A stretch of DNA of 62,752 bases, the filler included, from Basidiobolus ranarum (lineage: Eukaryota): the NCBI GenBank assembly GCA_040143965.1. It is 35 parts of 35 records of this genome, joined end to end, with 100 filler letters (N's around TTAATTAATTAA, not from the genome) between each part and the next. Parts side by side here need not be neighbours in the genome. Positions count along the whole stretch, not along the records: positions 52,117 to 53,807 come from JASJQH010004546.1; 34 more parts are not named here. One strand, 5' to 3'. The notes under the pieces were generated by a model, which worked only from the letters and a program-made list of their open reading frames with translations, was not told the origin of the DNA and did not search any database. The position numbers and the translations under genes were made by a program. This document shows, piece after piece, positions 1,805 through 58,335 of this stretch. Numbering within the stretch: the first letter of the stretch is position 1; every line of letters begins with the position of its first letter.

Positions 1805-1953
1805 ATCTTGAAATTTCACTCCTGAAACTGAAAAAATTGATTAAAATCAAATTTAACTTGACAATTTTATGATGGTAAGTAAATGTTCAATCCCTAATGG
1901 ATTAAAATTTTGACTGTTTTCCTACAATAACAATCCTCAAATTTCTGGTAGGG
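1805..1953 (-). mobile_element. EnSpm-like DNA transposon, end A
   Basis: Reverse complement of the multicopy CCCTAACAGAAATTTGAGGATTG... terminus. Confidence 0.88.
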
Positions 1954-2715
1954 TACATGACTTCAGATTTTTCAGATCACCAGTAAAAGCCAAGTAACTG
2001 TTTGGACATGAAGGCAGCTAAATTACTGTAGGCTTATAGCAATATGCTTGACAGGTATTTTCAACATGTATCAGTTCTGTGGCTAGCCAAAGTTGCCAAT
2101 CAACTGTGGTAAATGTGTTGAAAGCTAGTAAACAACTGGTTGCTAAAGTTGGATTGAACTCTCCACTCCTCAAAAAACAAAGGTGCTTACTTGACTGTAA
2201 GCATTCTGAGTGGACTAATACTTGCCAAAACTAAAGATTCCATATTAAAGTTGCCATCTTCCACTTCATCATCTTCTAATATATTGCTGTCAGTACTAAA
2301 ATAACCAAGGTCTACATCTAGCAGTATGTTTCAGAGTTTTCTGGACCTACTGGCTCAACCAAACTTGCACTTCTATCTACATCATTCTGATCATGTAAAT
2401 GTGGTAACTCCATGGCATACTCACTGACAGCAGTATTACCAACATTTTGAGGTAAACCACAGCCAATGGACTCAGTGGGCAAAAGTGAAGTAGTCTGAAT
2501 GCACTCATTACTATTGATACTCACCAGGCTTGGTGCAGCTGGTGGCTTTGTACAGAGACCATGCTTGCAACTATTTTTTTATGAAGCCTTGGGCTTTTAT
2601 ACCACAGATATTTATGACAATAATAGCAAGTCTACTTTATGCATTTGTGTCATGGCATAGGAAAGCTATTGCTCCAAAAAAGAACACTAACTACATAAGG
2701 GTGGTATTTTTGGAA
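1954..2715 (-). pseudogene. EnSpm-like transposase, N-terminal fragment
   Basis: ATG at 2658 gives MP*HKCIK*TCYYCHKYL..LH and later LPSCPNSYLAFTGDLKNLKSC. Homologous to 52272-53029 and to 43240 onward. Confidence 0.75.
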
Positions 2716-2722
2716 TAACTAA

Positions 2723-3358
2723 TCCCAACAAAAATGAAATCAATGTGATCCAGATCAGATCACCTGTCTGCGGCACAAAACCATCAGAAGACTACCATAT
2801 TATTGGTAGCTTGCATTCTCCCAGAGATTTTGATTGTGAAATGATGGCCTCTTGATGGTATTATGACAGTATTTGTAAATGATGAAATATAGATCATATA
2901 TTTTTGCATGCTTTATTTAATTTCCAATGGTTATTGGAAAAAAACCAATTTTGAAATGGCAAACCACTGGGCTTGCTGCTGTAGCAATTCAAATTAATAT
3001 GCCCACCTGTATAAAGATTCTTTAGGCTGCACATTCCAGCCATGATGAGAATGAAAGAATTATGAATCTTGTTGTGTGTATTCTCTACATATGCACTTTC
3101 TTGATAGATCAGACAAAACTCAGCAATATGAATATATTTTACCAGCAAACTAATGGTGGAGAATTGCTAAGTATTTAAAATAGAGAGATGCACTGATACT
3201 TTGAATATAGCTGACTCTTGTCATTAATGACCTTGAGAATAAGCTCTTGGATTATGGCAAATTTCCATAAAGAATTCAGCCAAAACATCTCTGGCTTACA
3301 GTGAACAAATGTACTGCCATATGTAGATGTGTAATTGCTTGAATAGATTGCCTCATGG
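2723..3358 (+). mobile_element. EnSpm-like DNA transposon, end B and subterminal region
   Basis: Diverged copy of the CCCTAACAAAAATAAAATCGATTTGATCC... terminus seen at 41892 and 44504. Confidence 0.85.
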
Positions 3359-3507
3359 TGTCACAATAAGGAACTGGACAAGGACTGGAAACAATGACAA
3401 GAGGCTAGAAGGCAGGAGAGTACTTGGGTGTAGACCACAAGACAAGACAAGACAGGACAAGGAAGATACTTTGGCAAGAATCTTTATTGATAACTGGCAT
3501 TGATCAG
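3359..3507 (-). repeat. Gypsy/chromovirus LTR family G1, 3' end
   Basis: TGTCACAATAAGGAAC... also occurs at 11768, 30218 and 33730, and reversed at 48142. Confidence 0.9.
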
Positions 3508-3607: not shown

Positions 3608-3735
3608 AACTGAAAAAATTGAATAAAATCAAATCTAACTTGATGATTTTATGAAGGTAAGTAAACAGTCAATCCCAAATGGATTAAAATTGTGCTGTTT
3701 TTCCTACCATAACAATCCTCATATTTCTGTTAGGG
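3608..3735 (-). mobile_element. EnSpm-like end A
   Basis: Ends ...atttctgttaggg. Confidence 0.9.
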
Positions 3736-4103
3736 GTTTGGATCAGGAGAAAGTTACTTTAGAAAACTGCAGTTGTGAATAGCTTTGTGAGATAATTGTT
3801 TATTATCCAGATGTAAAGCATTTAAACATTTTGATGGAAATATACAAAACTAACACTGGGGTTGTTTTCAGAACATCTGTAGAAGTAAAATGAGCTATCT
3901 TGGGGCAATTTGGACAAGTTTGAAATTTCCAATATGGAATTGCTTATTCTCACATCATTAACATATAGATATATTATATGCTCTGATTTTCAGCCAAGTG
4001 ATATTTTATTAAGCAATGTTAACTAACTAATATGTGATATATAAAATAGTTAGGTGTATAAAGATAAAGATAACACATATAATAAAGACAACAGACTTCA
4101 ACA
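3736..4103 (-). repeat. Copia LTR family L1
   Basis: Matches 18962-19339 and ends ttcaaca. Confidence 0.88.
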
Positions 4104-4133
4104 AGGTTTAGCTTCAAACCAAGGTTGACATGC

Positions 4134-4850
4134 CCCTAACAGAAATTTGAGGATTGTCAGCATAGGAAAACCATCACAATTTTAATCCATTTGAGATTGA
4201 CTGTTTACTTACCATCATAAAGTCATCAAGTTAGATTTGATTTTAATCAATTTTTTCACTTTCAGGAGTGAAATTTCAAGATCTTACAAAATAGATGCAC
4301 ATGATTGGCTACAATCTCAGAGAACTCTGATTCAACACATGTGCAAGAAACATAACTCAAATTTTACAAAATACCACTTGAATGCTAATTTGTCACCTTT
4401 GAAATCCCTAGTCTCTTTGATATATTCTCCTGCATATTTTTATAGAGTTCTTCATATGCAAGGTTTTGCTCATATGCACCCAAGTTTGTATCAATATCTC
4501 CATCCAAGCCCACCATTATATTAGCATAGCTGAATCAACATTCTTCCAGCTATCTGGCTGATACCCGGAGCCTCGGTATTTAGAAGGTGACAAGTTAGCA
4601 ATCAAGTGATAATTGTGTAAAATTTCAGTTATGTTTTTTGCACATGTGTTGATCATTAGTTCTCTGAGATTGTAGCAAATCATGGGCACCTATCTTGTAA
4701 GATCTTGAAATTTCACTGCTGAAACTGAAAAAATTGATTAAAATCAAATCTAACTTGATGATTTTATGACCATAGATAAACAGGCAATGCCAAATGGATT
4801 AAAATTGTGATGGTTTTCCTATGATAACAATCCTCAAATTTCTGTTAGAG
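4134..4850. mobile_element. Two EnSpm-like A ends in inverted orientation (4134-4567 +, 4568-4850 -)
   Basis: CCCTAACAGAAAT at 4134 and ATTTCTGTTAGAG ending at 4850; this is the centre of an inverted duplication. Confidence 0.85.
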
Positions 4851-4880
4851 GCATATCCACCTTGGTTTGAAGCTAAACCT

Positions 4881-5310
4881 TTTTGAAGTCTGTTGTCTTT
4901 ATTACATGTGTTATCTTTATCTTTATACACCTAACTATTTCATATATCACATATAAGTTAGTTAACATTGCTTAGTAAAATATCACTTGGCTGAAAATCA
5001 GAGCATATATTATATGTTTGATAGGTGTCTTCCAAGGCTTTCCATACCTTCTTTTCAGTTTTAGCTTTTGAACATTGAATTAGCACTCTGTCTTTATCAT
5101 TAAGACAAATCATGTTAAAGGTACTTTGCTCTTTGTTAACCTGGAGTAAAACTTTGGTTTCAGATAGTTTTACATTGTTTTCTCCTACAACAGTGTCCCA
5201 ATGACCTTTTTCTTGCAGCAGGATTTTCACTTTAACTTTCCAAACTTGATAATTGGTTCCATCCAATTTTTCAGAAGAGGAAAAAGTTCCATAAATTCGA
5301 GCAATAGACA
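4881..5310. mobile_element. Partial L1 LTR (+) followed by copia gag N-terminus (-)
   Basis: LTR match 4881-5020; LDGTNYQVWKVKVKILLQEKGHWDTV is a typical copia gag start. Confidence 0.85.
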
Positions 5311-7213: not shown

Positions 7214-7666
7214 GTCAACACATGAGATAATAAAAGTGGTAGTAGTGGTTGCTGTCATGCTGTAAAGGTTAGAACATGGTTGGCAGGGCCTAGTGGGAAA
7301 ATAGGGGCTGTTTGGAGGAACTGTAGAATAGTGGAGTTGTGAAGAGCTTTGTGAGATAATTATTTATTGCCCAGAAATAAAGCATTTATACATTTTTGTG
7401 GAAATACAAAAAACTAACACTGGGGTTGTGTTCAGAACATCAGTTGGAGTAAAATAAGCTATTTTTGGTGCAATTTGAATGAGTTTGAAGTTTCTAATAT
7501 GGAATTGCTAATTCTCACATTCTTCACATATATATAATATATGTTCCAATTTTTAGCTAAGTGATATTTGACTAAGTAATGTTACCTAACATATATGTGA
7601 TATATGAAATAGTTAGGTGTATAAAGATAGAGATAACAAATATGATAAAGACAATAAACTTCAACA
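7214..7666 (-). mobile_element. Copia L1 5' LTR (~7291-7666) plus gag start
   Basis: LTR match; the downstream leader and ATG match 18900-18960 and 21880-21930. Confidence 0.88.
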
Positions 7667-8255
7667 GCCAATACTTATCAGGCAGAAATCTTTTCAAGAT
7701 TCCATTTGAATATATACAAATCCAACACTTCTAGTCTTTGCATTTGAATAAATGCCAAGATGAGTGGTTATTGATGGAAGTCCTGGTAAAATATGATGGT
7801 ATCTTGATGTTTTCAAGCATTTTCCTGATTCATTCAAACTTTGATCCTATCTTGAATGGCTCATGCATATTGAATTTTACACTATATAGCTGAATAAGTG
7901 GTATTGCAATGTTGTTGGATAGTAAGTGCATAGTGCCTAATGGGAAGCTCAAGCTCCAGATGATCCCCTTTAGCAATATAATCTTAGGCTAACAGCTAAC
8001 ACCAAGCTTGATGTTAGACTGACTATTTGGTGAATTGATGTCACTGATCATGTTGAAATCTGACCAGGCTCTTGATGGTAAAATCATGTAGTTTAGTTTT
8101 GTATCTGGATAGTAGTAATTCATATGTCTGATAGAGTAGACTCCATTGATTTGACAAAATCTACAGCAAGATAGTGCATTGTGCCTGCAAAAACCTCCAA
8201 GTTTACTGATGGCAGGAGTGTCACCAATACACACAATGATATCAGCTTTAATAAA
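7667..8255 (-). pseudogene. EnSpm/CACTA transposase catalytic-core fragment
   Basis: CIGDTPAISKLGGFCRHNALSCCRFCQING matches the D-x-P-A...C-R-F-C block of Tnp2/Transposase_21-type proteins. Confidence 0.85.
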
Positions 8256-8586
8256 CCCTAACAGAAATTTGAGGATTGTTGTTGTAGGAAAACCATCACA
8301 ATTTTAATCCATTTGGGATTGACCGTTTACTTACCGTCATAAAATTGTGAAGTTAGATTTGATTTTAATCAATTTTTTCAGTTTCAGGAGTGAAATTTCA
8401 AGATCTTGCACAATAGCTGCAAATGATTGGCTAAAATCTCAGAGAACTATGGATCAACACATGTGTAAAAAACATAACTCAAATTTTACACAATTACCAC
8501 TTGAATGCTAATTTGCCACCTTTGAAATCCCTAGTCTCTTTGATATATTCTCCTGAATATTTTTATAGAGTTCTTCATACCCAAGG
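8256..8586 (+). mobile_element. EnSpm-like end A
   Basis: CCCTAACAGAAATTTGAGG at 8256; retains some CpG. Confidence 0.92.
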
Positions 8587-8915
8587 CACAGTACTTTACA
8601 AATATCTGAAAATCCGCTTAACTGCTATGATTTGATCAGATCCATAATTTTGAAGATATTGGCACATAACTCCCATAGAATATGCAATATCTGGCCATGT
8701 TCCAACCATGATATACATCAAACTACCAACCATAGATTGATAAGGAAATTTCTGGCTTTCATTTGAGTCCAAGAATGTCTGATTTGAGCCATTTTTGGTC
8801 AAGTTAAGATTTGTCTCCATTGGGGTAGATACTGGATTACATTATTCGATTTTAAACTTCTTTAGTATATCTAGGATATACTTAGACTGGTTTAAAGTTA
8901 TTGTTTTGGTAGTTC
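8587..8915 (-). mobile_element. Copia RT C-terminal fragment
   Basis: PYQSMVGSLMYIMVGTWPDIAYS...KRIFRYL. Confidence 0.9.
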
Positions 8916-9100: not shown

Positions 9101-9777
<677 letters not shown>

Positions 9778-12618: not shown

Positions 12619-12749
12619 ACATTTGCAATATGTGTAACCATGCTTTCAGACTTTTCCATCTTTATATTGAAGAATTTTCATTTGAGAAAGAGTGTATTAG
12701 CATGACACTTTGCTTCATAATACTCTTCCAATATAGTCCAAGCTTGCTG
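12619..12749 (-). mobile_element. Copia gag fragment
   Basis: Homologous to 22150-22280. Confidence 0.85.
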
Positions 12750-14317
12750 CCCTAACAGAAATTTGAGGATTGTTATTGTTGAAAAACCATCACAATATTA
12801 ATCCATTTGGGATTGACCATTTACTTACCATCATAAAATTGTCAAGTTAGATTCGATTTTAATCATTTTTTCAGTTTCAGGAGTGAAATTTCAAGATCTT
12901 GCAAAAAGGTTGTGAATGATTGGCTAAAATCTCAGAGAACTATGGGTTAATACATGTGCAAAAAACTTAACTCAAATTTTACACAATTATCACTTGAACG
13001 CTAATTTGTCACCTTTGAAATCCCTAGTCTCTTTGATATATTCTCCTGCATATTTTTATAGGGCTTTTCATACCCAAGGTTTAGCTCATACCCAACATGA
13101 GTTTGTGTCAATATCTCCATCAAAGCCCACCATTGTATTAACATTGCTGAATCATGATTCTTCCGGCTATCTGGCAGATACCCTGCAATATTGTGCCACT
13201 CTGTATTAAGTTCTTCCCAGATATCTGCATGGTCAACACCAGACTGAACATGAAGTTGAATATTCTTCTTCAGAAGCCACTTTCTGCATACTTGCACTGT
13301 GTTTTTCCCTTCATACTTTTGAAAATACTTCTCAAGCACTTTGACTATTTTGTATGTCCTTGTAGTGTGACACTACGGAGGGTGCTTTGCGGTGTTTGTG
13401 CAGCTTTTGTTTACCTTTACCTTTGGGATTAATTTCAACACTTTGAAAAGTAATAGTCAAGGTTGGAGAGCTGCGAGTTTTATTTGCTGGTGTATTGGCT
13501 TGTTGAAAGGTGCCAGGTGTTGGATAAACTTCTGAATTTAGCACTCTTCCAACTGGTGTACCTGGTTCGATGGTGAAATTAAGCTTTTTTGCCTCTATAT
13601 GGGACTCTGGAAATGCAGATGTTTGTAATGGTATGAAGAATTTGGTAAGTGGGACAGTAGAGGCTAAACTCACTTGCTCCTTTGCTCTTCCCTTGGGTTT
13701 ACTAACTTCCTGCTCCTTCAGTACTTTTTTAGCTGCTTTTCTTTCATTTCCAAGTCAATAATTGCATACATTTTTGAGATGTTTCATGAATAGGCCTATA
13801 CCAGCCCAATTGCCATTTGCTTGCAAAAACCCAGGATAAGCCACGTGAAATAAGTCAAGAACCTTCAGAGTAATTCCTAGTTTTTGGTTTTTCCACAATT
13901 GACTTAAATCCAGGTGATTTTAGGCAATATTCGCCACAGTTTGCAAAATGTTAAACCACTCATCATCAGAGCAAATGATGGCCGCTCTGACATTCAGAGT
14001 CTTTTGGTTTGCTGGTTTTCCTATGAGATTTCTACTTTTGTGTGCCAAAGCAATTTTGGGTTGTTGTGTAGGCTTAATGGTCCACCACATATTCTGCTCT
14101 TCTTGATTGTCATGGTGACATTCATATGTATGGTGTGGGATTGACTGAAATCCCATATGAGAATAGATGGAGGGAGCAGCATGTAGCTATAGCTCAAGAA
14201 CAGCATTCTGAAGGTCTTGTATCATTGTTGAGTGACTCTCTAACTGTCAACTAGTTGCTTCCAAATGCTGCATTAATTGTAATATTGTGGTGTTATTGCT
14301 TGTCATGGCCTGTATAG
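12750..14317 (+). mobile_element. EnSpm-like end A with 1.57 kb of internal sequence
   Basis: CCCTAACAGAAAT at 12750; collinear with 27890-28700 and 48534-49193. Confidence 0.92.
13001..14317 (-). pseudogene. Transposon ORF2 (unknown function), central and C-terminal part
   Basis: One frame runs through ORFs 13920-14156 and 13332-13673, broken by TGA/TAG/TAA that look like C>T changes (the stop at 13920 is CAA in the 18016-18195 copy). A frameshift then leads into 13001-13339. Confidence 0.75.
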
Positions 14318-16419: not shown

Positions 16420-17135
16420 GTGGAGCCTTCACTTAATAGGGCAACCAGCTATTACTGCTGGCATGCAGCTCTACATGTTGACCTGGAATGTCTCACTTGA
16501 GGTTTGTGCTCAACAGTTATTGCATCTTCAACAACTGTAGAAGCTTCATCTCTTTTAACTGGCCACCGTGACCTCTGTTGCATGGCAGAACATGTTGGAG
16601 CAAGTTGTCTACCTTGAGGTTTGTGCTTGATAGTTATTGCCTTTTCAATCATGGTGGACTCTTCATCTCTTTCAACTGGCCATGACCATGGTTGCATGGC
16701 AGTACATGTTGGAGCAAGTTGTCTACCTTGTGGTTTGTGTTGGGCAGTTCTTGCCTCTTCAACCATGGTAGAAGCTTCATCTCTTTAGACTGGCCATGGC
16801 CACAGTTGCTTGGCAGTACATGGTGGAGTGAGTCATCTACCTTGTGATTTGTGTTCTGTGGTTATTGCTTCTTTGACCACAGTGGAAGGTTCATCTCTTT
16901 CAACTGGCCATTGCCGTGGTTGCATTCCAGTACATGTTGGAGCAAGTCATATACCTTGAGGTTTGCATTTGGCAGTTCTTGCCTCTTCAACCATGGTAGA
17001 AGCTTCATCTGTTTCAACTGGCCGCCATGACCTCTGTTGCATTGCAGAATGTGTCAGAGCATATTGTCTACCTTGAGATTTGTGTTTGACTGTTGTGGCT
17101 TCTTCATGCTCAGTAAAAGCTTCACTATCTCTCTC
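16420..17135 (-). repeat. Tandem array of about six 114/117-bp units (38/39 codons)
   Basis: Anchor GGAGCAAGTTGTCTACCTTG at 16597, 16711, 16825, 16939 and 17056; minus-strand unit ~KHKPQGRQLAPTCTAMQPWSWPVERDEASTMVEEARTA. Confidence 0.92.
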
Positions 17136-17466
17136 AAACACCCATTGTCTTGTTCTTATAGGGCTACGCATTGTAACAGATTGAGTCTTAGTGAATTGCT
17201 CTTAGGTGTCAGATCTTCATCCAACAAAGTGGAAGGTTCTATAATTCTTGTGGTTGGCCTTTGTTGCTGTCACGGGGTTGTATGTGTTAAACCGTTATCT
17301 TTCTGGAGGCAAGCTCCTTGGAGCTGACTCTTCTCCAGATGTAAAAAGCTCACTGGTTAGTTTGGTTGAATCAGGTAAATTGCATGCTACAATGTGTGAA
17401 ATTTGGCTTATTATAAGCTGTTTCTAAGCAATTTCATTACACCAAGTTTACCATCTGAAAATTTCA

Positions 17467-17915
17467 ATGCCATTTAAAAAGTGTTCAAAATTTAAGTCAA
17501 AATTGACTTCCAAGCCAAAGCCTGCTGGCCCAAAAGGAAAAAAACCAGCAAGAACAGCGGATTAAATTGATGAACAGTCTAGCGATCCACTATCCACTTT
17601 GGAAGGCATTAACCTGCCGCAAACTAACTCAAGCAATGATGAAGCATTAATCAATTTACCAGATGTGTTCCTTTCCAGCAATAGTGCAAGTGAAGAGATT
17701 TTAATTCCCCAATTACATAGTAAATCAATAGTTGAGCAAAGTTCAACCAAAACACTGTCAAGACCTTCAACTTCCAAAATGGCTACTTTGCCCACAATTA
17801 AGCAACCCTCAGTAGAAAATTTGAATAGAATTGTTACAACAAGGGAATCGCAGGCAGAACACCATAATGATTTGTATGCAATCATAAGTAAAAACTATGA
17901 AGTTGCTATACAGGC
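17467..17915 (+). pseudogene. Transposon ORF2, N-terminal part
   Basis: MPFKKCSKFKSKLTSKPKP... has one internal stop and is in frame with ORF 17599. Homologous to 53247-53530; its last 10 nt overlap, in frame, the reverse complement of 14308-14317. Confidence 0.7.
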
Positions 17916-18195: not shown

Positions 18196-19339
18196 AAATT
18201 ATTTCTTGATTTGCAATCTTTTATCTGATGTCCTGGTTTGTTCCTACCATAGCATAAACCTGGTTTCCTTCTTTTGTAACCTTTGTACTGGCCAAAGCTA
18301 CATTTTCCAGCCCCAAAAAGAGCCTCTTCCACAGGTTCCTTTTTGAAATTCTTACTTCTGAGATGTTGATCCATTAGCCTTGCTACCACAAACTCCAAAG
18401 ACAACTTGTCAGATCTTACTTCTAAAGCTGTGACCAAGGTTGAGTACTGTTCTGGTAGACTACTTAGAGGAGTCAGAATGACATCTTCTTCTTGTAAAGT
18501 TGCACCAATACTTTCCAGTTGTTCTGCCAAAGATCTCACATATGCAATATGAGTAACCATGCTTTCACACTTTTCTATCTTAATATTGAAAAATTTTTGT
18601 CTGAGAAAAAGTCTATTAGCACAAATCTTTACTTCATAACACTCTTCCAATGTAGTTCAAGCCTGATGGGAAGTCTTTGCATATTGAATATTCACAAGTT
18701 GTGAAACCTTCAAACTTTGACATATGACATTAAGAGCCTTCTTGTTTCTCTTCTTGTAAGCTTCTAATAAAGAAAGGTTAGAAGGTTCCTTTTTATCTCC
18801 AGAGATTACATCCCAAAGCTCCCTGTCTTGCAGCATGATTTGCATCTTGAACTACCAGAAATAATAATTTTCTCCATCAAGCTTTTCAACACTTGAGTTA
18901 ATAAAAGTGGTAATAGTGGTCTCTGTCATGCTGTAAAGGTCAGAACATGGGGCTCATGACCTATTAGGAAAATAGGGGCTGTTTGGAGGAACTTTAGAAA
19001 AGTAGAGTTTAGAATAGCTTTGTGAGATAATCATTTATTGTCCAGAAATAAAGCAGTTATACATTTTGATAGATATACAGAAAACTAACACTGGGGTTAT
19101 GCTAAGAACATCTGTGGGAGTAAAATGAGCTATCTTTGGGGCAATTTGGATGAGTTTGAAATTTCCAATATGGAATTGCTAAATCTCACATTATTAACAT
19201 ATATATAAAATATATGTTCTGCTTTTCAGCAAAGTGATATTTAAATAAGTATTGTTAACTAACTTAAATGTGATATATGAAATAGCTTGGTGTATAAAGA
19301 TAGAGATAACTAATATGATAAAGATAATAAACTTCAACA
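18196..19339 (-). mobile_element. Copia L1: 5' LTR (18962-19339), PBS and gag with zinc-knuckle remnant
   Basis: 378-bp LTR, GGTCATGAGCCC PBS, EKLDGENYYFW...CYGRNKPGHQIKDC. Confidence 0.93.
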
Positions 19340-26330: not shown

Positions 26331-26513
26331 TAGCTAGTGTGAGAGTAGTAACCAGGCAGAGATCTCATCCTTTTGGATATCCTAAGATAGGAAATTGGCA
26401 CTACAACTTCTGGTACTAACTTAGGCAATTAAACCACCTCAGGCTTGGTTGAGGAGACAGCAGGTGAGGAATTTTCAATGTTTTTCTCTCCAATCATGAT
26501 CTGGTTAGAGAAA

Positions 26514-26903
26514 AGACTTGCTCCATTTTATTGAGCCAGATCAGGCCAGCTAAAAAGTGTGTCAACACAAATTGGCATGATTGGGCACTATCTGGCATGA
26601 TGTTATTTACCATTTTGGAAACAGTTTATTTTACCTATGTGGTATGTTTAAGAAAAGTACTTTTAGACATTATTGCACATTCAAAAGATAATGAAAGCTT
26701 TATTCATAGTGTCTTAAGTCTAGAGCTCTCAATGGACATCTTTGAGTATGAATGTATTGAGAATTAATCAAGATTTTGACTACTTTGCCTAACTTTGATT
26801 GAGGCCCACAAAATGATTTTCCTCTATACTTTCCTGCTACAACGCTATATCTCTTTAGGAAACCAAAGCTATGTTCTACTCTTGCTCCAAAATGGAAAAA
26901 AAT
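26514..26903 (+). mobile_element. Unclassified TIR element (family C), terminus plus internal sequence
   Basis: The first ~90 bp closely match 53726-53807, with different upstream flanks. Confidence 0.6.
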
Positions 26904-32392: not shown

Positions 32393-32567
32393 TCAAATTT
32401 TCACCCATGCTTAACAGGCATGTTTATTATGATCTAAGCACGTCCAATAGTCCTATTTCATAGTAAACTATAAATAGGACATATTCAATTCAATAAAACT
32501 TAAATGTCTAATTTACAAATCCAAATCTTGTCCAAAACACATCCAAATCCTCTAAACACTTTTATCA
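32393..32567 (+). repeat. Copia L2 LTR, 3' part
   Basis: Matches 27-200. Confidence 0.9.
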
Positions 32568-33729
32568 ATAGCCACCCATCTGAACCCCATTAGATAAGCA
32601 TTTAAATTCCACAATTCAAGGCTCCAAGAAGCTATCTATATGAACTGGTGATTTAGGTCCAGATAAGATGGATAGTATCAAAATGTTATAGCTGTTTTAC
32701 CATTAAGAAGGAGGAAGATGTAAGTTAATTAAAATTGTTGGCCAGCAAGCCTTTCCAGTGGTATATTTGCTTGGTAAGAAACTATCCAGAGCCAATGCAA
32801 ATGCATGATCATATGTATTTTCAAAGAAATTTTGACATTTCCAATTCTGGTAGTGATATCCATCAAGAGTATTGGTAATATCATCAGCTTTACAGTGAGT
32901 ACTATGGTACTGGATCAATGATCTATATTTTGGTCATTTCATCAAAACTTTAAGATGGGGAATCAGCTGTATGTCAGCCAAATACAAACAATATTTACCT
33001 GATACAATAATTGCCAATGGTGTGCAAGCAATAAGTGGCTCCAGGCCTTTCAGATCATTGGTGAAAGCCAAAGAGCCATTTGGACAGATGATGAAATCAC
33101 CCAAATATAGATTGTTGATCCAATACCAAAGTACTGACAATAAAGCTGATGGTATTATCAATATACTTGATGGATATCACTACTAGAACTTGAAAAGTCA
33201 AGGTTTCTTGAGATCACATATGATGACACATTTGCATTGGCTCTGGATGGTTACTTGCTAAACAAATATGCCATTGGAAAGGCTTGCTGGCCAATAAATT
33301 TAAATAACTTAAATCTTCCTCCTTCTGAACTAAATACAAGTCATCATATTTTGATATCATCCATCATATCTGGACCTATATAACCTTTACTTATAGATAG
33401 CTTCTTGGAGCCTTTATTTGCAGAATTTGAATAGTTATCTAATGGGGTTCAGTTGGGTGAATATTTTATTAAAGCTAATATCATTGTAAGTATTGGTGAC
33501 ACTTCTACCATCCATAAACTTGGGGGTTTTTGCAAGCTCAATGCACAACATTGCTGTAGACTTTGTTAAATCTATAAAATCACTCTATCAGGCAAACACA
33601 TTACCACTATCCAAATACAAAGAAGACTCTATAATTTTACCATCAAGAGCCTTGTTAGATTTCACCATGATCATTGATATGTATTCACCTAATAGTCAGT
33701 CTAACATCAAACTTGGTATTAGCTGTAAG
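32568..33729. pseudogene. Two inverted EnSpm transposase fragments (32568-~33088 -, ~33088-33729 +)
   Basis: The FALALD(S/G)..., ACWP...NL(H/N)LPPS and SGP blocks typical of Tnp2-family transposases occur on both strands. Confidence 0.85.
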
Positions 33730-35982: not shown

Positions 35983-37676
<1,694 letters not shown>

Positions 37677-39571: not shown

Positions 39572-41263
39572 CCATACCACTTGGGCTGGGGTTGACAGGT
39601 TCTTCCAGAAAAAAGATGTGCGCAAAATGTCATGTCGATTGACTACACATTGGGCTGCGTTCAGGTAACAGTCAAGTGTGTCTCTATTTGGAAAGGTCAT
39701 CTGAGCTGCTAGTAGATGGGAATCACCAATGGTTGACAACATGTGATGGAACAAGATACCATCTTGAAGTGGAGATAAAGAATAGATGTCCTGGATATTG
39801 GATACCCCACCTGGGACCTGAGCTACAATGCAGTCGATATCAAATTGATTGAGATTGATGAAAGGTAGAAGGTCTGGCGTCAAAATCGCAGTGTTGGCCG
39901 ATATCAAGTTGGGTGCAATGGCTGTTTCCTGGAACTTTTCTAGAGACTGAGCCAGTGTGCTAAGCGTAGGAGTATCAAATAGCCCCCGAATAGAAACCGT
40001 AAGCCCGTGGCGACGCAATCGCTCTACCATCTGTACGGCGAGCAGTGAATGTCCACCCAGCTCAAAGAAGTTACCGTGACGACTCACGCGTTCCAGACTC
40101 AGCAATTCCTTCCAGATTCCTGCTAGCAATATCTCGATCTTACCTTGCGGGGCCTCATATATCCCATGGATAAAAGCTTCTATGCCTGGTGGTGGCAGTT
40201 CCTGACGGTCAAACTTTCCATTCGGTGTCAATGGCCAGGAATCCATGCGTACAAAGGCGGCAGGCAACATGTAATCAGGTAACTTTGATGACAAATGTGA
40301 TCGCAATGCATGGACGAGGTGTTCATCTGGCGCTGCTACAACATACGCAACTAATCGCTTATCGCCTCCTTCACCCAGAGCCAGAACAACAGCTTCTCTT
40401 ACCTGAGGGTGGTCAACAAGATGTGCCTCAATCTCCTCAAGTTCAATTCGATGCCCACGGATCTTAACCTGACAGTCATTACGACCCAAGAGTTCCAAAT
40501 TACCATTAGGTAAATAGCGTCCCAGGTCACCAGTCTTGTACATGCGGGCCCCTTCTGCGGTACTAAATGGATCTGAAATGAAGCGTTCGACAGTAAGCTC
40601 AGGACGATTCAAATAGCCACGTGCCACACCTGCTCCACCAATATACAGCTCACCTATTGCTCCCAATGGGACAGGATGACCATACGGATCCAGTAGATAA
40701 ATTCGCGTGTTAGCAATTGGTCGTCCAATATGAAGCTGGCTGTCATCTATTCTCAATTGGCCAGATGTAGCTAAAATTGTCGTTTCAGTTGAACCATAAT
40801 TATTCATTATTGCAAGTCCAGGAGGTAGTGATTTCAGTGAACTAGGAAACCGATCTCCACCGGTCATTAGGTAACGCATGCTTGAGGGAACTAGACCCTC
40901 TCCAAGAGCAAGAACTGCAAGTGGTGTGACTAAAATAGCGACCACTAAATTTTGTCGACTCCACCATTGCAGTAAAGTAGATACATCTTGAGAAACAGAA
41001 CGATCTGGTATTGCTAGTGTGGCCCCACAAATCATTGCAGGCCAGATCTCGCACGCAGTTGCATCAAAGGCAACCCCAGATGTTGATGTACATATTGTAC
41101 CAGAACGTATACTAAAACTACTGTTATACCATGTACAAATATTAGACAAGTTCCGATGTTCGACCATCACACCTTTCGGAGTGCCGGTAGAACCAGAGAT
41201 ATAGATCACGTAGACGAGGTGACACGAGGTCAGGCCTGGTATATACGGATTGCTTGTACATGA
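39572..41263 (-). CDS. Nonribosomal peptide synthetase fragment (A domain, PCP, start of a dual E/C-type condensation domain); partial at both ends
   Basis: YISGSTGTPKG, YKTGDL, QVKIRGHRIEL, NGK, FFELGGHSL, VPGGVSNIQDIYSLSPLQDGILFHH; intronless across the whole contig. Confidence 0.96.
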
Positions 41264-41364: not shown

Positions 41365-41891
41365 CTTGCAGCTTTCCTAGATGTACTGTCAGATTATCAC
41401 ACAAACAAAATAGTCCAAATTAAAGAGGTACTTACTGTGAGTCCATGGATTGGGTTTTGTTGCTGTTATTGTGCTCAAACAATGCAAAAACTCATGATCA
41501 CATTGAAAAGAGCCCTGTGTTGGAAGGTTTATATAGTCTGGAGTCTCCTTAACCCATTGCATTACATCCATCACTGATTTTGCAGATACACTATTAATCA
41601 GATTAGCATATGGTAACATTGACAATTTCATACAAATAATCATTTCACCACCAGTATGTTCCATTGGGAACTCCCAGAAAGTATAGCAAGGGCCCATAAT
41701 CTCTAAGCATTTTGAATGATGCAGCAGGAAATGTATTAAGTACTGGCATAGAGTCATTCTATATTCTTTAAACCTGTAATAAATTTTCTACTTCCTGATT
41801 ACAAAATCTTTGCATGTTTGCTGTATTTGCCTGAGATCTGCCAATGTGAGTTGATGCCATAAGAATATATTAAAAATATCCACAAACAACT
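41365..41891 (-). pseudogene. EnSpm transposase C-terminal catalytic fragment
   Basis: HFLLH...MGPCYTFWEFPMEH resembles the H..H...GP...W.F.MER motif. Confidence 0.85.
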
Positions 41892-43057
41892 CCCTAACAA
41901 AAATAAAAATGATTTGATCCAGATTGGATCCACCCTCCAAAATAGCAAAACCATCAGAGAACCATCAAAATATTGGTGGCTTGCATTCTGCCAGGGATTT
42001 TGATGGTGTAATGGCAGTTTCTTGATGGTATTTTGATGGTATTCATACATGTTAAAATATTGATCCTCAAATTTGGCATGTGTTATTCAATATCTGGCAA
42101 TTTTAGCAAAAATCCAATTTTTGAATGGCACATTTCTGGGTTTACCGCTATTGGATTTTGAATTAATATGCTTGCCTTTATTTTAATATTTTAGGCTTTG
42201 CATTCCAGCCATAATGAGAATCAAAAAATACAAGAATTTTGTTGTGTTTAGTCTCTACATATGCACATACTTGACTGATTTGACTTAACTCAACAACATC
42301 AATATGCTTTACCAGCAAACTAATGGTGGAAAAATTGCTAAACATCTGAAATTTTGAATAGCATGGACACTTGGCAAATAGCTGACTCTTGTTACCGTTC
42401 ACAATGAGAATAAGCTCTTGGATTTTGACAAATTTCCGTAAAGAATTCAGCCAATATATTCCCAACTTGCAGTCAACAAATGTCCTGCCACATGTAGTTG
42501 TGTCATTGCTTGAATAGATTACCCCTTGGCTAAAACAAAAATACTGCATATATGATCTATCTCACCAAGAAGTTTATCTTGCAGCGTTCCTAAAATTACC
42601 ATCAGATTATCACACAAGCAAATTAGTCTGATTATAGAGGTACTTACTCTGTGTCCATGGATTGGGCTTTGTTGCTGTTATTATGCTCAAACAATGTGAA
42701 AACCTATGAGCACATTGAAAAGAGCCCTTTGTTGGCAGTTTAATATACTCTGGAGTATCCTTAACCCATTGCATTACATCCATCACTGATTTTGCTGATA
42801 CATTGTTAATCAGATTAGCATATGGTAATACTGACAACTTCACACAGAGCATCATTTCACCACAGGTGCACTCCATTGGCAACTCCAAGAATGTATAGCA
42901 AGGGCCTATAATCTCTAAGCATTGTGAAAGATGCAGCAAGGAATGTATTGAATACCAGCATAGATTCAGTCCATCTTCTTTAAACCAGTAAGAAAGTTTT
43001 TCATATCCAATTACAAAATCTTTGCACAATTGCTGTATCTGCTTGAGATCTGCCAAT
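41892..43057 (+). mobile_element. EnSpm-like end B joined to the transposase 3' end (42178-43056, - strand)
   Basis: CCCTAACAAAAAT at 41892 is continuous with HSLLHLSQCLEIIGPCYTFLELPMECTCG, so end B lies downstream of the transposase. Confidence 0.92.
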
Positions 43058-43157: not shown

Positions 43158-43508
43158 TGTTGCTTGCCACCAACCTAGTACAAGTGGAAAACACTTGTCA
43201 ATTGTATGACTTATAATTGTTCAGTAATTAAGCTACCTTCATGTCCAAATGGTTGTTTGGCTTTCACTGGTGATCTGAAGAGCCTGAAGTCATATACTGT
43301 TTGTACACAATTAGCAATTGGTGAATCAGGAAAACATTATTTATATTCAGCCCACATACCATTGAATCCCATCTCAAAGCTTTGATGACATCACCCAAAT
43401 ATGGATCATTGATTCATTACCAAAGTACTCACCATAAATCTGATGGTAACACTCATGTATTTGAAGGATATTACAACCAGAATCTAAAAGTCATGGTTCC
43501 TTTGTGAA
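43158..43508 (+). pseudogene. EnSpm transposase N-central fragment
   Basis: CPNGCLAFTGDLKSLKSYTVC...HIPL. Confidence 0.8.
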
Positions 43509-44849
43509 CCCTGACAAAAATAAAGTTAATTTGATCTGGATCAGTTCAACCCTTTTGGATTACAAAACCATCAGAGAACCTTCAAAATTATGAGGGCTAG
43601 CATTCTGCCAAGCATTTGGATGGTGAGACAGTGGCTTCTTGATGGAATCCATACACAGTAAAATATTGATCCTCATATTTGGCATGTGTTATTTAGTCTG
43701 CCACCTTTTTGGCAAAAAACCAATTTTTGAATAGCATTGTACTTGGTTTACTGCTCTAGGAATTTCAATTAATACACATGCCTTTGTTTAGAGATTTTTG
43801 GATTTGTATTCCAGCCATAATGATAATCAAAAAGTATAAGGATCTCATTGTGTTTAGTACCTACATATGCACATACATCACTGATCAGACATAACTCAAC
43901 AACATCAATATGCTTGACCAGCAAACTAATGGTGGAAAAGTTGCCAAACATCTGAAATTTTGAATTGCACTGACACTTGGCAAATAGCTGACTCTGGTTA
44001 CCATTCACAATGAGAATAAGCTCTTGGATTTTGGCAAATTTCCACAAAGAATTCAGCCAAAATATCACCAAATTGCAGACAACAAATATCCTAACACAAG
44101 TAGATGTGTCATTGCTTGAACATATTACCCCATGGCTAAAACATAATACTACGTATCTTGATCTATCTCACCAAGGAGTCTGTCTTGCAGCTTTCCTGGA
44201 TATACTGTCAGATTATCACACAACCAAATTTTTCTAAATTTTATAGGTACTTACTCCATATACATGGATTGGGCTTTGTTGCTGTTATTGTGCTCAAACA
44301 ATGAAAAACATGTGAGCACATTGAAACAAGCCCTTTGTTGGAAGGTTAATATACTCTGGACTCTCCTTAACCTATTGCATTACATCCATTAGTGATTTTG
44401 CTGATACATTTCTAATCAGAATAGCATATGGTAATACTGATGATTTCACATGGGGCATCATTTCACAAGGTTCCCATTCTTCCAGGACCTGGGAAACATG
44501 AATCCCTAACAAAAATAAAACTGATTTAATCTGGATCGGATCCACCCTCCAAAATAGTAAAACTGTCAGAGAACCGTCACAATATCATTGGCTTGCATTC
44601 TGCTAGGGATTTTGATGATGTGATGGCAGTTTCTTGATGGTATCTTAGCGGTATTCATACATGTTAAAATATTGATCCTCAAATTTGGCATGTGTTATTC
44701 AATATCCAGCAATTTTAGCAAAAATATAATTTTTGAAAGGCAAATTACTGGGTTTACTGCTGTAGGAATTTGAATTAATATGCATGCCTTTATTTAGATA
44801 TTTTAGGCTTTGTATTCCAGCCATAATGAGAATCAAAAAATACAAGAAT
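43509..44849 (+). mobile_element. Two EnSpm-like B ends (termini at 43509 and 44504)
   Basis: CCCTGACAAAAAT and CCCTAACAAAAAT, each followed by B subterminal sequence. Confidence 0.88.
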
Positions 44850-48142: not shown

Positions 48143-48433
48143 CTGCTTCCAATATAGAGCCTTCACCGTCGGGTTAACCATCTATTGCTACTGGTGCACA
48201 GCTCTAGAATTCAACCAAAAGTGTCTTTCTTGAGGCTTGTGTTAAAAAGTTATTCACTCTTAACCATGATGGATACTTCATCTCTTTGAACTGTCTATTA
48301 CCACTGATGCCTGACACAGCACATTGGAATGTATTGTCTACCTTGAGGTTTGTGCTCAGCTTTTGTAGCTCATTTGACCTTAGTAAGAGCTCAAGTATCT
48401 CTCTGAAACACCCATTGCCTTGGTCTTGTTGGG
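48143..48433 (-). repeat. Diverged homolog of the 16420-17160 repeat-ORF region with fewer units
   Basis: Shares TATTGTCTACCTTGAG.TTTGTG and TCTCT..AAACACCCATTG with 17061-17150. Confidence 0.7.
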
Positions 48434-48533: not shown

Positions 48534-49193
48534 CAAAAAGTCCCACAACCACTGCGCAGCACCCTCAGTAGTGTCACACTACAATGATGTATGAAAATAG
48601 TCAAAGTACTTGAGGAGTATTTTCAAAAGTATGAAGGGAAAGACACAGTGCGAGTATGCAGAAAGTGGCTTCAGAAGAAGAACATTCAACTTGACATTCA
48701 GTCTGATGTTGATCATGAAGATATCTGGGAAGTGCCTAATACAAAATGGTGCAATATTGCAGGGTATCCACTGGATAGCTGGAAGAATGCTGACTCAGCA
48801 ATGTTAATACAATGGTGGGCTTTGATGGAGATATTGATACAAACTTATTTGGGTTATGAGCTAAACCTTGGGCATGAAGAACTCCATAAAATGTTAAGGT
48901 GAATATATTAAAGAAACTAGGGATTTCAAAGGTGACAAATTAGCATTCAAGTGGTAAATATGTAAATTTGAGTTATGTTTTTTGCACATATGCCAATCCA
49001 TTGATCTCTGAGATTGTAGCCAAGCCTGTGCAACTATATAGCAAGATCTTGAAATTTCACTCCTGAAACTGAAAAAATTAATAAAATGAAATCTATTTTG
49101 ACAATTTTATGATGGTAAGTAAACATTGATTTCAAAATGGATTTAAATTGAGATGGTCTTCCTACAATAACAATCCTCAAATGTGTGTTTGGG
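48534..49193 (-). mobile_element. EnSpm-like end A with the ORF2 C-terminus (48591-48902, +)
   Basis: KVLEEYFQKYEGK...QWWALMEIL matches 13001-13339. Confidence 0.9.
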
Positions 49194-49626
49194 TAATACT
49201 TGGTTAGCAAGTCATCTTCTTAGAGTCTGGCAACTTTGTGTCTGTCCCAATGGACTAAGCATTCCTTGGTGACTACTTGTTTATCCATTAGCTGATATGT
49301 CTGGAATGGGTATTTGCTGATTACTTTGAAAGGTCCAATCCCAAGAGGCTCAAACTTCCTCTTGGTATTATTTCTTAACTGTACAAAGGTTCCTTTAACA
49401 ATTGATTATGAGTCTACAATATTGCCTAAACAAGTCTTCATTTTTGAGGCACTGGTCTCAACTTTGGCTTTTGCTGCATTTCTGTACTGAGTCAGCTTCT
49501 CCTTTGCTAGGGTTGGTTAAGCTGACCTTCCAAAAGTCAGTGAGTTTTGGTTATAATGTGTCTTCTGGAATCTTTGGGAGACATCCATTGACCAAGTAGA
49601 TAGGAGACTTCTGAGTTGTACTAGGG
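49194..49626 (-). mobile_element. Gypsy integrase C-terminal (GPY/F) fragment
   Basis: KFEPLGIGPFKVISKYPFQTYQL...LVHWDR. Confidence 0.75.
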
Positions 49627-50225
49627 CTCTGATGGAAATTTGAGGATTGTTATCATAGAAAAACTCTCACAATTTTAATCCATTTTGGGTTGACCCTTTA
49701 CTAACAGTCATAAAATTGTCAAGTTAGATTTGATTTTAATGAATTTTTGTTGCAGTTTATTGTGTTTAACCTATTTGTTATCTCTATCTTTAACTACTTA
49801 ACTATTTCATATATCACATATAAGTTAGTTAACATTACTTAGTCCAATATCACTTAACTTCAAATTGGAATATAAATTATGTAAATTTATGTGAATAATG
49901 TGAGAATTAGCAATTGCATATTAGAAATATCAAACTCATCCAAATTGCCCCAAAGATGGCTCAATTTACTCCCACAGATGTTCTGAACATAACCCCAGTG
50001 TTAGTTGTCTGTATTTCCACTAAAATGTATAAATGCTTTATTTCTTGCTTCCCATCAAGCTTGGACTACATTTGAAGAGTGTTATGAAGCAAAGAGTCTT
50101 GCTAATAGACTCTTTCTCAGACAATAATTCTTCAATATAAAGATGGAAGGGTTGGACAGCATGGTTACTCATAGTGCAAATGTGAGATCTTTGGCAAAAC
50201 AACTGGAAAATAGTGGTGCAACTTT
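49627..50225 (+). mobile_element. Nested fragments: EnSpm end A (49627-49747), L1 LTR (49748-~50045), copia gag
   Basis: Each segment matches its family elsewhere in the window. Confidence 0.85.
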
Positions 50226-52116: not shown

Positions 52117-52271
52117 CTCACATAATTCACATATATATAAAATATATGTTCCGATTTGCAGCTAAGTGATATTTGACTAAATAATGTTGACTAACTAATA
52201 TGTGATATATGAAATAGTTAGATGTATGAAGATAGGGATAACATATATGATAAAGACAATAAACTTCAACA
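52117..52271 (-). repeat. Copia L1 LTR, 5' part
   Basis: Ends cttcaaca at 52271. Confidence 0.9.
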
Positions 52272-53029
52272 TATTTTGGCAGCTTCTTCAACACTTTGAA
52301 ACAATGTTGCAATGGTATATAAGCCTTGTATGATTTATATTTCCCCAAATCACTGATTGCTAATTCTCTGCAAATAGTGCCTGATATTTGATTTTTCAGC
52401 TCACCAGTAAAAGCCAAATCACTATATGGGCATGAAGGAAGTATAACTACAGAAGGATTGTATGTCAAATACTTGACAAGAGCCTTCCACTTGTACTAGG
52501 TTTGTAACATGCAATAATCAACCCTCAGCAGTCACAGATGTTTAAGAATGTCAGTAAATGTCTAATTACTTAAATTTGTTTACACTCAGCAATCTTTGGT
52601 GATCCAAACTGATCCCTGACTATAAGAGCTATAAATGGATTTATGCGTGCTGATAATAATGACTCTCTGTCTCTATCCTCATCTGCTATACTTGTGTCAG
52701 AATCAGTGGAAGTCAAGTCCTCTGCATGAAGCAGCATGTCTTCAAAATTTAATCAACATGCTGGCTCAAGAGAATTAGCACTGCTTGCACCAAGATTGTG
52801 AACAGGTGATTGGGATCACTGAATAATATCTTGACTTTCATAAGTATTAATGAAACCTTGAGGCCAAATATAACTCATAGACTCAGTAGGCAAAATTAAA
52901 GTGTTTCCAGAGCTCTTCAATTGGTGGCTTTTTTTTGTGAATTCTCTTTCTGTGAAGAACTTGGCTGTCAGAGCAAAAGAGTTTGTGGCAAGCATAGCAT
53001 TGCTTTTTTGTAAGTTTCTGTTTTTGCAT
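52272..53029 (-). pseudogene. EnSpm transposase N-terminus
   Basis: MQKQKLTKKQCYACHKLFCSDSQVLHRKRIH ... LPSCPYSDLAFTGELKN ... AYIPL, with frameshifts. Confidence 0.75.
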
Positions 53030-53246
53030 GAAAAGGATATTCTGCTTGAAAAAAACAAAGCAAGTTTCATAAGGGTGATATTGAGTTTATATTCAATAGA
53101 AGAGATTGTCTGATCTTTGGATGGTATTAGAGATGTTCATCAGGGTATTTTCAAGTCAAACCCAGTAGTGTAGTATGGTTTTGGTTTTAGCTTATCAAAA
53201 TTTATAAAAACAATTTGTTTAAAAAGTTTACCTCATAAATATTTTG

Positions 53247-53530
53247 ATACCATTGAAAAAACAACTGCAATGTAAGTCAAATTTGCAATCCAAGCAAAAG
53301 CCGCTAACTGGAAGAGAAATAAATCCACAGAAGACTTAGCCAATGAACTGCTGTGCAATATTTTGCTCTCCACTGGAGACATTGAGAAGTCAAGAACTAA
53401 CTAAAATAATGATGAACTTTTACTTCCTATACCAGAAATGTTGTTTTCTACCAACATAACAACTGAAAAGTTTTGATATGCCAATCATGTAGGAATTAAT
53501 GGCTGAATAGGCAGGTTCCATAGTTGCACT
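53247..53530 (+). pseudogene. Transposon ORF2 N-terminus, divergent from the transposase
   Basis: IPLKKQLQCKSNLQSKQKP and NNDELLLPIPEMLFSTN align with MPFKKCSKFKSKLTSKPKP and SNDEALINLPDVFLSSN at 17467. Confidence 0.65.
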
Positions 53531-53807
53531 CCCAAACAGAAATTTGAGGATTGTTGCTGTAGGAACACTTGTATAATTTTAATCCATTTTGGATTGACTG
53601 TTCACTTACCATCATAAATTCATCAAGTTAATTTTGATTTTAATCAATTTTTTTAATTTCAGAAGTGAAATTTCAAGATGTTGCAAAATAGCTGCAAATG
53701 ATTGCCTACAATCTCAAAAACTATAAGACTTGTTCCATTTTATTGAGCCAGATCAGGCCAGCTAAAAAGTGTGCCAGCACAAATTGGCATGATTGGGCAC
53801 TATCCGG
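53531..53807 (+). mobile_element. EnSpm end A (53531-53725) interrupted by a family C terminus (53726-53807)
   Basis: CCCAAACAGAAATTTGAGG, then AGACTTGTTCCATTTTATTGAGCCAGATC. Confidence 0.8.
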
Positions 53808-57486: not shown

Positions 57487-58335
57487 ACTACTTCAATGGT
57501 AAGGAACCCAACAAATCCATCAACCCTGACGAGGCTGTAGCCTACGGAGCTGCTGTTCAAGCAGCTATATTGTCTGGAGATACTTCCGAGAAGACCCAAG
57601 ATTTACTCCTACTCGATGTCGCCCCACTCTCATTGGGTATTGAGACTGCTGGTGGAGTAATGACTCCTTTGATCAAGAGAAATACCACTGTTCCTACCAA
57701 GAAATCCGAGACTTTCTCTACCTATGCTGATAATCAACCTGGCGTATTGATCCAAGTATTTGAGGGTGAGCGCGCCCGTACCAAGGACAATAATATTCTT
57801 GGCAAGTTCGAACTCTCTGGAATTCCTCCAGCCCCTCGCGGAGTTCCCCAAATTGAAGTTATTTTTGATGTTGATGCCAACGGTATCTTGAATGTATCTG
57901 CATTGGATAAAACTACTGGTCGTTCCAATAAGATCACCATTACCAATGATAAGGGCCGTCTTTCTAAAGAGGATATTGAACGTATGCTCTCCGAAGCAGA
58001 AAAATATAAAGCTGAAGATGAAGAAGCAGCTTCTCGTATATCCGCTAAAAATGGGCTTGAATCCTATGCCTACTCACTTCGGAACACCCTTCAAGATGAA
58101 AAAATTACTGGTCAATTAGATGTCAATGATAAGAAGAAACTTGAAGAAGCCATCAACTATCAGTTGGTTGGACGCAAGTCAAGAAGCTTCTAAGGAAGAG
58201 TACGAAAAGAAGCAAAAAGAGTTGGAAGGTGTTGCAAACCCTATTATGACCAAGATGTATCAGGCTACTGGTGAAGCCCCTGGTGGCTTCCCAGATGGTG
58301 ACAACAGTGAACCAACTGTTGGAGAATTAGATTAA
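57487..58335 (+). pseudogene. HSP70: Cytosolic HSP70 (SSA-type) 3' half with a frameshift near 58158
   Basis: [40 protein letters not shown]; the frame breaks between EEAIN and TISWLD, and the protein ends EPTVGELD. Confidence 0.8.

Follow-up and report, generated by a model that had tools for sequence, protein, structure and literature searches.

The closest described relatives of the elements treated here are the EnSpm/CACTA transposons. The genes of maize En/Spm are co-oriented, and target-site duplications measure 2-5 bp in the EnSpm-related clade and 3 bp in EnSpm. Among the EnSpm-related elements of fungi, Plavaka of the Agaricomycotina has short target-site duplications and ends in TGT..ACA (PlavakaA) or CATCA..TGATG (PlavakaB), as given in the accessible sections of Kojima (2025; PMC12730594). 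For Basidiobolus itself, huge CMC-EnSpm expansions are described in the accessible part of Muszewska et al. (2017; PMC5751038), and the initial annotation, which had raised the possibility of an uncharacterised fungal lineage, was thus overstated at the superfamily level. Here, we describe from Basidiobolus ranarum a family that is abundant, dead and of the Tnp2/EnSpm type, and that carries non-canonical CCCTAACA termini.

The whole stretch of DNA that was analysed, the window, comprises 62,752 bases and chains 35 separate contigs (1,688-1,704 bases each), which are sorted by length and divided by N...TTAATTAATTAA...N spacers, so that features in different contigs are no genomic neighbours. 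The region under study, 52272-53530, sits in the contig 52117-53807. Overall, the contigs are largely repeat mosaics of ~35% G+C, and when the 76 frames of at least 90 codons were all scanned against Pfam, many pieces of Copia-type gag, integrase and reverse transcriptase were found. The same scan found a few host genes (44-47% G+C), namely ATP sulfurylase/APS kinase, a piece of a non-ribosomal peptide synthetase, HSP70 and Arf, with the gene pieces at 35985-37676 (-), 39572-41263 (-), 57489-58190 (+) and 9104-9777 (-). Three of them are held by contigs of normal G+C: an ATP sulfurylase fused to an APS kinase, a non-ribosomal peptide synthetase module (AMP-binding, PP-binding, Condensation) and HSP70; the Arf piece lies in an AT-richer contig.

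Ends of the transposon family, which fall into the two types End A and End B described below, are present in 17 of the 35 contigs. In some contigs, two repeat ends face a short unique segment: 1805-3507 consists of End A, 771 bp and End B; 3608-5310 and 48534-50225 each hold End A, ~400 bp and End A; and 7214-8915 and 52117-53807 each hold an LTR-like repeat, repeat X, followed by a segment and End A. Since short-read assembly breaks inside high-copy repeats, repeat ends that face unique segments are to be expected and are no evidence of linkage. A linkage between repeat X and End A, which face the same way in four contigs, was considered and rejected for the same reason, the contigs being unique pieces capped by repeat ends. 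Separately, the composite of repeat X, 30 bp and End A occurs as an inverted duplicate (3969-4415 versus 5015-4568) with arms 90.9% identical over 449 bp; an assembly hairpin was rejected as the origin of this structure (3969-5015), given that the arms are just 91% identical.

The region 52272-53530 is nearly unique within the window, and we are confident, short of certainty, that this low-copy fragment derives from the interior of an autonomous, now dead Tnp2/EnSpm (CMC) DNA transposon. Both of its limits, 52272 and 53530, proved to be true repeat borders. On the left, 52117-52271 (+) is the 3' end of repeat X (83-91% identity to the copies in the window), which truncates the transposase gene fragment; its end, ...CTTCAACA, is common to 11 aligned copies, whose right flanks are mostly different. 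On the right, 53531-53724 (+) is a nested End A of another copy, with the terminus CCCAAACAGAAAT and with 75-86% identity to other End A copies that begins exactly at the terminus. The interior of this End A runs right, away from the region, and is replaced after 194 bp by another repeat (53725-53807; 95% identical to 26513-26595).

Between these borders, the minus strand of 52272-53029 carries the start of a transposase gene. The start at 53029 (-) that had been proposed for it is borne out by an ATG, which is followed by a Cys-x2-Cys...His-x4-His stretch, of which a second, more diverged copy exists at 2741-2420. Downstream of this stretch come, in this order, an acidic segment and the CP..(C)LAFTG block (52432-52274); stops separate these conserved parts, which occupy three different frames. 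Paralogues of this 5' part are found at 2741-1949 (-), 43179-43385 (+) and 33086-32928 (-), and the first of these belongs to a second, more diverged 5' copy (1954-2716, -) that is flanked by nested copies of End A (1805-1953) and End B (~2724-3358). The segment 52274-52432 matches 33086-32928 with 47% identity over 53 residues. Because the latter is continuous with a stretch that aligns to PF02992 proteins, it ties the 5' piece to the transposase core. The CP..LAFTG block also finds a collinear match in several full-length relatives, located ~90 residues before their PF02992 domain, although the E-values are weak (0.002-0.5; 142 proteins compared). On its own, the block retrieved no relatives from the database and had no Pfam match. 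We conclude that 52272-53029 (-) represents the putative first ~250 codons, or 5' third, of the transposase gene in decayed form.

The assignment of this gene to a family draws on pieces in other contigs. The most informative one is the C-terminal frame at 42613-43056 (-), which contains HSLLH and a GPCYTF.E.PME block and matches the C-terminus of the Tnp2-like protein P0001 (residues 216-350) with 47% identity. A full phmmer search with this 148-residue frame returned 142 proteins at E <=0.001, the best at 2e-30 with 47% identity, and among them are two Panaeolus cyanescens proteins that bear the name Tnp2 or transposase. We scanned 22 of the 142 against Pfam, comprising several top matches and most of those longer than 500 residues. 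PF02992 (Transposase_21, Tnp2) is present in 14 of these 22, upstream of the matched part, DUF4218 is also present in two, and none matches a Plavaka model.

Further pieces of the gene were recognised. A second copy of the C-terminal region at 41392-41787 (-), which is 84.6% identical to 42578-43057 and hosts the nested End B at 41892, aligns to P0001 residues 199-351 at E 1e-37. A core piece with GDTPA and CCRFC at 7668-8252 (-), cut by repeat X on the left and by a nested End A on the right, aligns to P0001 residues 2-195 (52% identity, E 8e-62). Two further, diverged pieces with ALALD and WP..NLPP blocks lie in inverted order at 32580-33086 (-) and 33127-33566 (+), and PF02992 proteins align to them at E 8e-15 to 1e-9. 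At this site, 32567-32944 and 33465-33089 are transposase gene pieces that stand head-to-head, inverted, 82.6% identical and ~145 bp apart; here, too, an assembly hairpin (32567-33465) was rejected, since the arms are just 83% identical.

Taken across contigs, E-values from 8e-15 to 8e-62 were obtained when PF02992-bearing relatives were aligned with 32580-33566, 7668-8252 and 41392-43056, so that the window holds pieces of a nearly whole transposase, decayed and from different copies. The PF02992 profile itself, to which the initial annotation had pointed, is found in the relatives, whereas the window's own pieces stay under its gathering cut-off of 28.6 bits: the core piece scores 15 bits and the pieces at 32580-33566 score 12.8 and 17.1 bits. 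These three fragments of 70-88 residues match the profile collinearly, at positions 17-63, 32-81 and 120-156, and the complete domain is found in no single contig. Pfam matches are absent from the N- and C-terminal pieces of the transposase. Likewise, the motif blocks GDTPA/CCRFC, WP..NLPP and GP..W.FPME that had been read as hallmarks of the family are real but lie in contigs other than that of the studied region (7989-8255, 32703-33383 and 41392-43056). GDTPA...CCRFC at 7989-8255 and HSLLH followed by GPCYTF.E.PME at 42613-43056 are thus read from different decayed copies, and particular residues in these motifs would presumably have a catalytic role. The placement in the Tnp2-type CMC-EnSpm group nevertheless holds, given the homology to PF02992 proteins and the order of the motifs across the pieces: as judged from sequence comparison, the transposase is homologous to Tnp2 (PF02992-bearing) proteins and hence Tnp2/EnSpm-like.

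The family was delimited by its termini. The 13-bp terminus CCCTAACARAAAT has 17 matches at <=1 mismatch in the whole window, where 0.27 are expected, and none of 100 shuffles reached this number. Beyond base 13, the matches split into two unrelated families, End A with 11 and End B with six copies, so the proposed sharing of one terminus by two unrelated subterminal sequences is well founded; A and B have 12 of the 13 terminal bases in common. Both families have sharp borders and unrelated outside flanks. These flanks differ in every copy, save for the two End A copies of the inverted duplicate in contig 3608-5310, which is the signature of a mobile-element end. Homology adds three diverged ends, an End A at 49193 (three mismatches), a degenerate End A at ~49627 and an End B at ~2724 (two mismatches); the resulting totals of 13 End A and 7 End B copies are the same as those counted in the initial annotation. 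A third family with the shared terminus was not found in the window at <=2 mismatches, and the few extra matches lie inside other repeats.

All 20 ends start with CCCTA or a near variant (CTCTA, CCCAA, CCCTG), in which base 2 differs from CACTA; the expected CACTA / CA..TG termini are found in none of the 20. The first six terminal bases of End A and End B, CCCTAA, are what we take to be one unit of the common telomere repeat. Past the terminus, the two families share five subterminal 10-mers, where 1.6 are expected and 7 of 300 shuffles reach five; no excess is seen at k = 9 or 11, and shared subterminal motifs thus appear weakly enriched. Scans of metagenomes with the 24-base End A terminus gave no match.

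Each family leads into the 3' end of a different gene. In the best copy of End B (41892, +), which was delimited by its terminus and by family alignment, the terminus and subterminal region (41892-42609) extend ~718 bp inward to the stop of the minus-strand frame 42613-43056, and the view that End B is continuous with the transposase 3' end is thereby confirmed with a Tnp2-like C-terminal frame. Inside the End B subterminal region, a minus-strand frame of 127-132 codons is open in two copies, 42181-42561 (-) and 43772-44167 (-), with 76% protein identity. It lies downstream of the transposase stop on the same strand, has no Pfam match and no counterpart among the transposase relatives, and might represent either a final exon or a third, small gene.

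In the longest copy of End A (12750-13879, +), identified by terminus and homology, 251 bp separate 12750 from the stop codon of ORF2, a frame on the minus strand (13004-13372) that a second frame, 13335-13754, overlaps upstream. The initial annotation had joined End A to the 3' end of a different ORF over 12750-14317. The 3' end of ORF2 is indeed there, but the element accounts for no more than 12750-13879, and the stretch 13880-14059 consists of Copia gag DNA with 91.7% identity to 18195-18016. Copia gag DNA in fact lies on both sides of this copy and in opposite orientations, 12619-12749 being similar to 18538-18668 (+) and 13880-14059 to 18195-18016 (-), and the opposite orientations imply that this is not a simple insertion.

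The last ~116 codons of ORF2 recur in seven contigs with 74-81% protein identity, in some copies with stops or frame changes. Only three relatives near its length were found, two hypothetical proteins of Basidiobolus ranarum and one unnamed ENA protein. There were no longer relatives and, in word-based searches, none outside Basidiobolus; ORF2 has no Pfam family and no match in the ESM Atlas, and a search of metagenomes with its alignment was likewise negative. The AlphaFold model is all-helical but poor (mean pLDDT 48), and no start codon was identified for ORF2. Given these properties, one might ask whether ORF2 is a gene at all, or merely conserved subterminal DNA with frames that are open by chance. 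The want of a Pfam family, of an ESM Atlas match and of relatives beyond Basidiobolus would fit the latter, as would the poor fold model, the missing start codon and the fact that protein identity among the copies (74-81%) is lower than DNA identity (84-92%). Yet decay at the neutral rate is expected in dead copies even of a real gene, the ~116-codon frame has been kept in seven contigs, either whole or with one or two breaks, and ORF2 also occurs in two gene models of Basidiobolus ranarum and in the ENA protein. We therefore regard chance-open frames as an unlikely explanation and treat ORF2 as a gene which, on these searches, is apparently lineage-restricted.

How, then, do the two ends relate? 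It is moderately probable that A and B are the two ends of one element, and a layout of the form TIR-A <-ORF2 | Tnp-> TIR-B, as had been proposed, is a plausible and the most economical reading of the sequences, because all 17 terminus matches at <=1 mismatch fall into just two families. A pairing of either family with itself is precluded by the outward-pointing gene whose 3' end it contains. If A does pair with B, this geometry suffices to make the transposase gene and ORF2 divergent. The other part of the proposal, the sight of both gene starts in the contig 52117-53807, is not supported. As the initial annotation had noted, no single contig holds both ends of one element, and none joins the interiors of A and B. 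Within the window, A is linked to B neither by a joining contig nor by a target-site duplication or an outside locus, and mapping of every flank to paralogous "empty" sites placed none of the A flanks next to a B flank.

We consider it rather unlikely that A and B instead represent different elements which share only the terminus bound by the transposase, such as an autonomous element with End B and a second element with End A, either ORF2-bearing or non-autonomous, which was amplified more recently and is mobilized by the same enzyme. The numbers would agree with such a scenario, in that there are 13 A and 7 B copies and the A copies look younger, with a median pairwise identity of 85% (12 copies) versus 76% for B (7 copies); so would the little subterminal sequence that the two have in common, and interiors that are joined in no contig. 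However, both families would then require partner ends whose subterminal sequences differ from their own, and a third or fourth terminus family is not seen at <=2 mismatches in this small sample of 35 contigs.

A pairing of A with B makes it tempting to look for the divergent gene starts, and the initial annotation had placed them in the contig 52117-53807, as the centre of an intact layout in which the transposase start (53029, -) stands head-to-head with an ORF2 start (53247, +) at a distance of ~217 bp. The transposase start is indeed plausible, and an A-B pairing, if true, forces the genes to diverge somewhere in the element. Nevertheless, 53247 has no ATG, and the ATG at 53270 runs directly into a TAA stop. 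No plus-strand frame in 53030-53530 exceeds 42 codons, and neither blastn (word size 7) nor Smith-Waterman alignment against shuffles nor six-frame tblastn reveals any similarity of this stretch to ORF2 or the End A interior. We thus describe 53030-53530 as sequence upstream of the transposase start that holds no supported gene.

The sole relative of this stretch is 17426-17701 (+), a diverged copy of the upstream sequence that is ~70% identical to 53208-53474. Changes between the two are not in excess at third codon positions (0.38/0.26/0.31 by phase), and since the differences are spread evenly over the codon phases, no coding constraint is visible in 53208-53474. The contig of 17426-17701 does run on into a plus-strand frame (17566-17913) of at least 116 codons, which is open to the contig end and has no Pfam match, and because of this continuation we leave a small chance that a gene starts in 53030-53530. 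On balance, a head-to-head pair of gene starts in the contig 52117-53807 appears highly improbable, and we prefer to read the region as a transposase 5' fragment with its upstream sequence. Adjoining the diverged upstream copy is a tandem array (16489-17106) of 5.4 units of 114 bp with 77% matches; similar units occur at 48143-48433.

From these observations, a history of the region can be sketched. The element would have moved by cut-and-paste: a DDE-type transposase (ALALD ... GDTPA ... CRFC ... HSLLH ... PME) would have bound the shared termini, excised the element and reinserted it. A and B would probably have formed the two ends of one element, with the transposase gene and ORF2 pointing outward in opposite directions. 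In the copy studied here, the 5' part of the transposase gene is interrupted by stops and frame changes and adjoins 500 bp of upstream sequence. The fragment is bounded by two later insertions, the LTR-like repeat on the left and End A of a copy of the same family on the right.

Compared with known systems, the Basidiobolus family is closest to the EnSpm/CACTA elements of the CMC (CMCT) clade (Tnp2, PF02992 and DUF4218), to whose transposase its own is homologous. Like these, it would, with A and B as its two ends, combine short terminal inverted repeats with subterminal regions that differ; a gene besides the transposase is another common trait. Two features set it apart: its termini are CCCTA, whereas those of EnSpm/CACTA are CACTA / CA..TG "in most cases", and its second gene has no detectable relation to a known family. 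This gene would also be divergent from the transposase if A pairs with B, in contrast to the co-oriented genes of maize En/Spm. The D..D..C(2)C..H(3)H..E order of the EnSpm-related clade, as given in the accessible sections of Kojima (2025; PMC12730594), can be read across the pieces of the Basidiobolus transposase. Plavaka resembles the family in being fungal and EnSpm-related and in having short termini; membership in it was rejected, because the Plavaka termini are not CCCTAACA and because none of the 22 scanned relatives matches a Plavaka model, whereas 14 match PF02992.

It is conceivable, and we suggest it only tentatively, that the family represents an uncatalogued two-gene EnSpm-related lineage of early-diverging fungi (Basidiobolus), in which the CCCTAACA termini are a one-base variant of CACTA with one telomere-like CCCTAA unit and a lineage-restricted accessory gene diverges from the transposase. 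Neither a new kind of mobile element nor a new mechanism is revealed by this. With the expansions described by Muszewska et al. (2017; PMC5751038), the family shares the superfamily, the very high abundance and probably the host genus, two of the three ORF2 relatives being named Basidiobolus ranarum proteins. In its accessible part, that study counts elements by superfamily, without termini, gene content or a family consensus. The present analysis adds a first anatomy of one expanded Basidiobolus CMC-EnSpm family, covering the termini, the ends of the genes and a propensity for self-insertion, which would aid the repeat annotation of fragmented Basidiobolus genomes.
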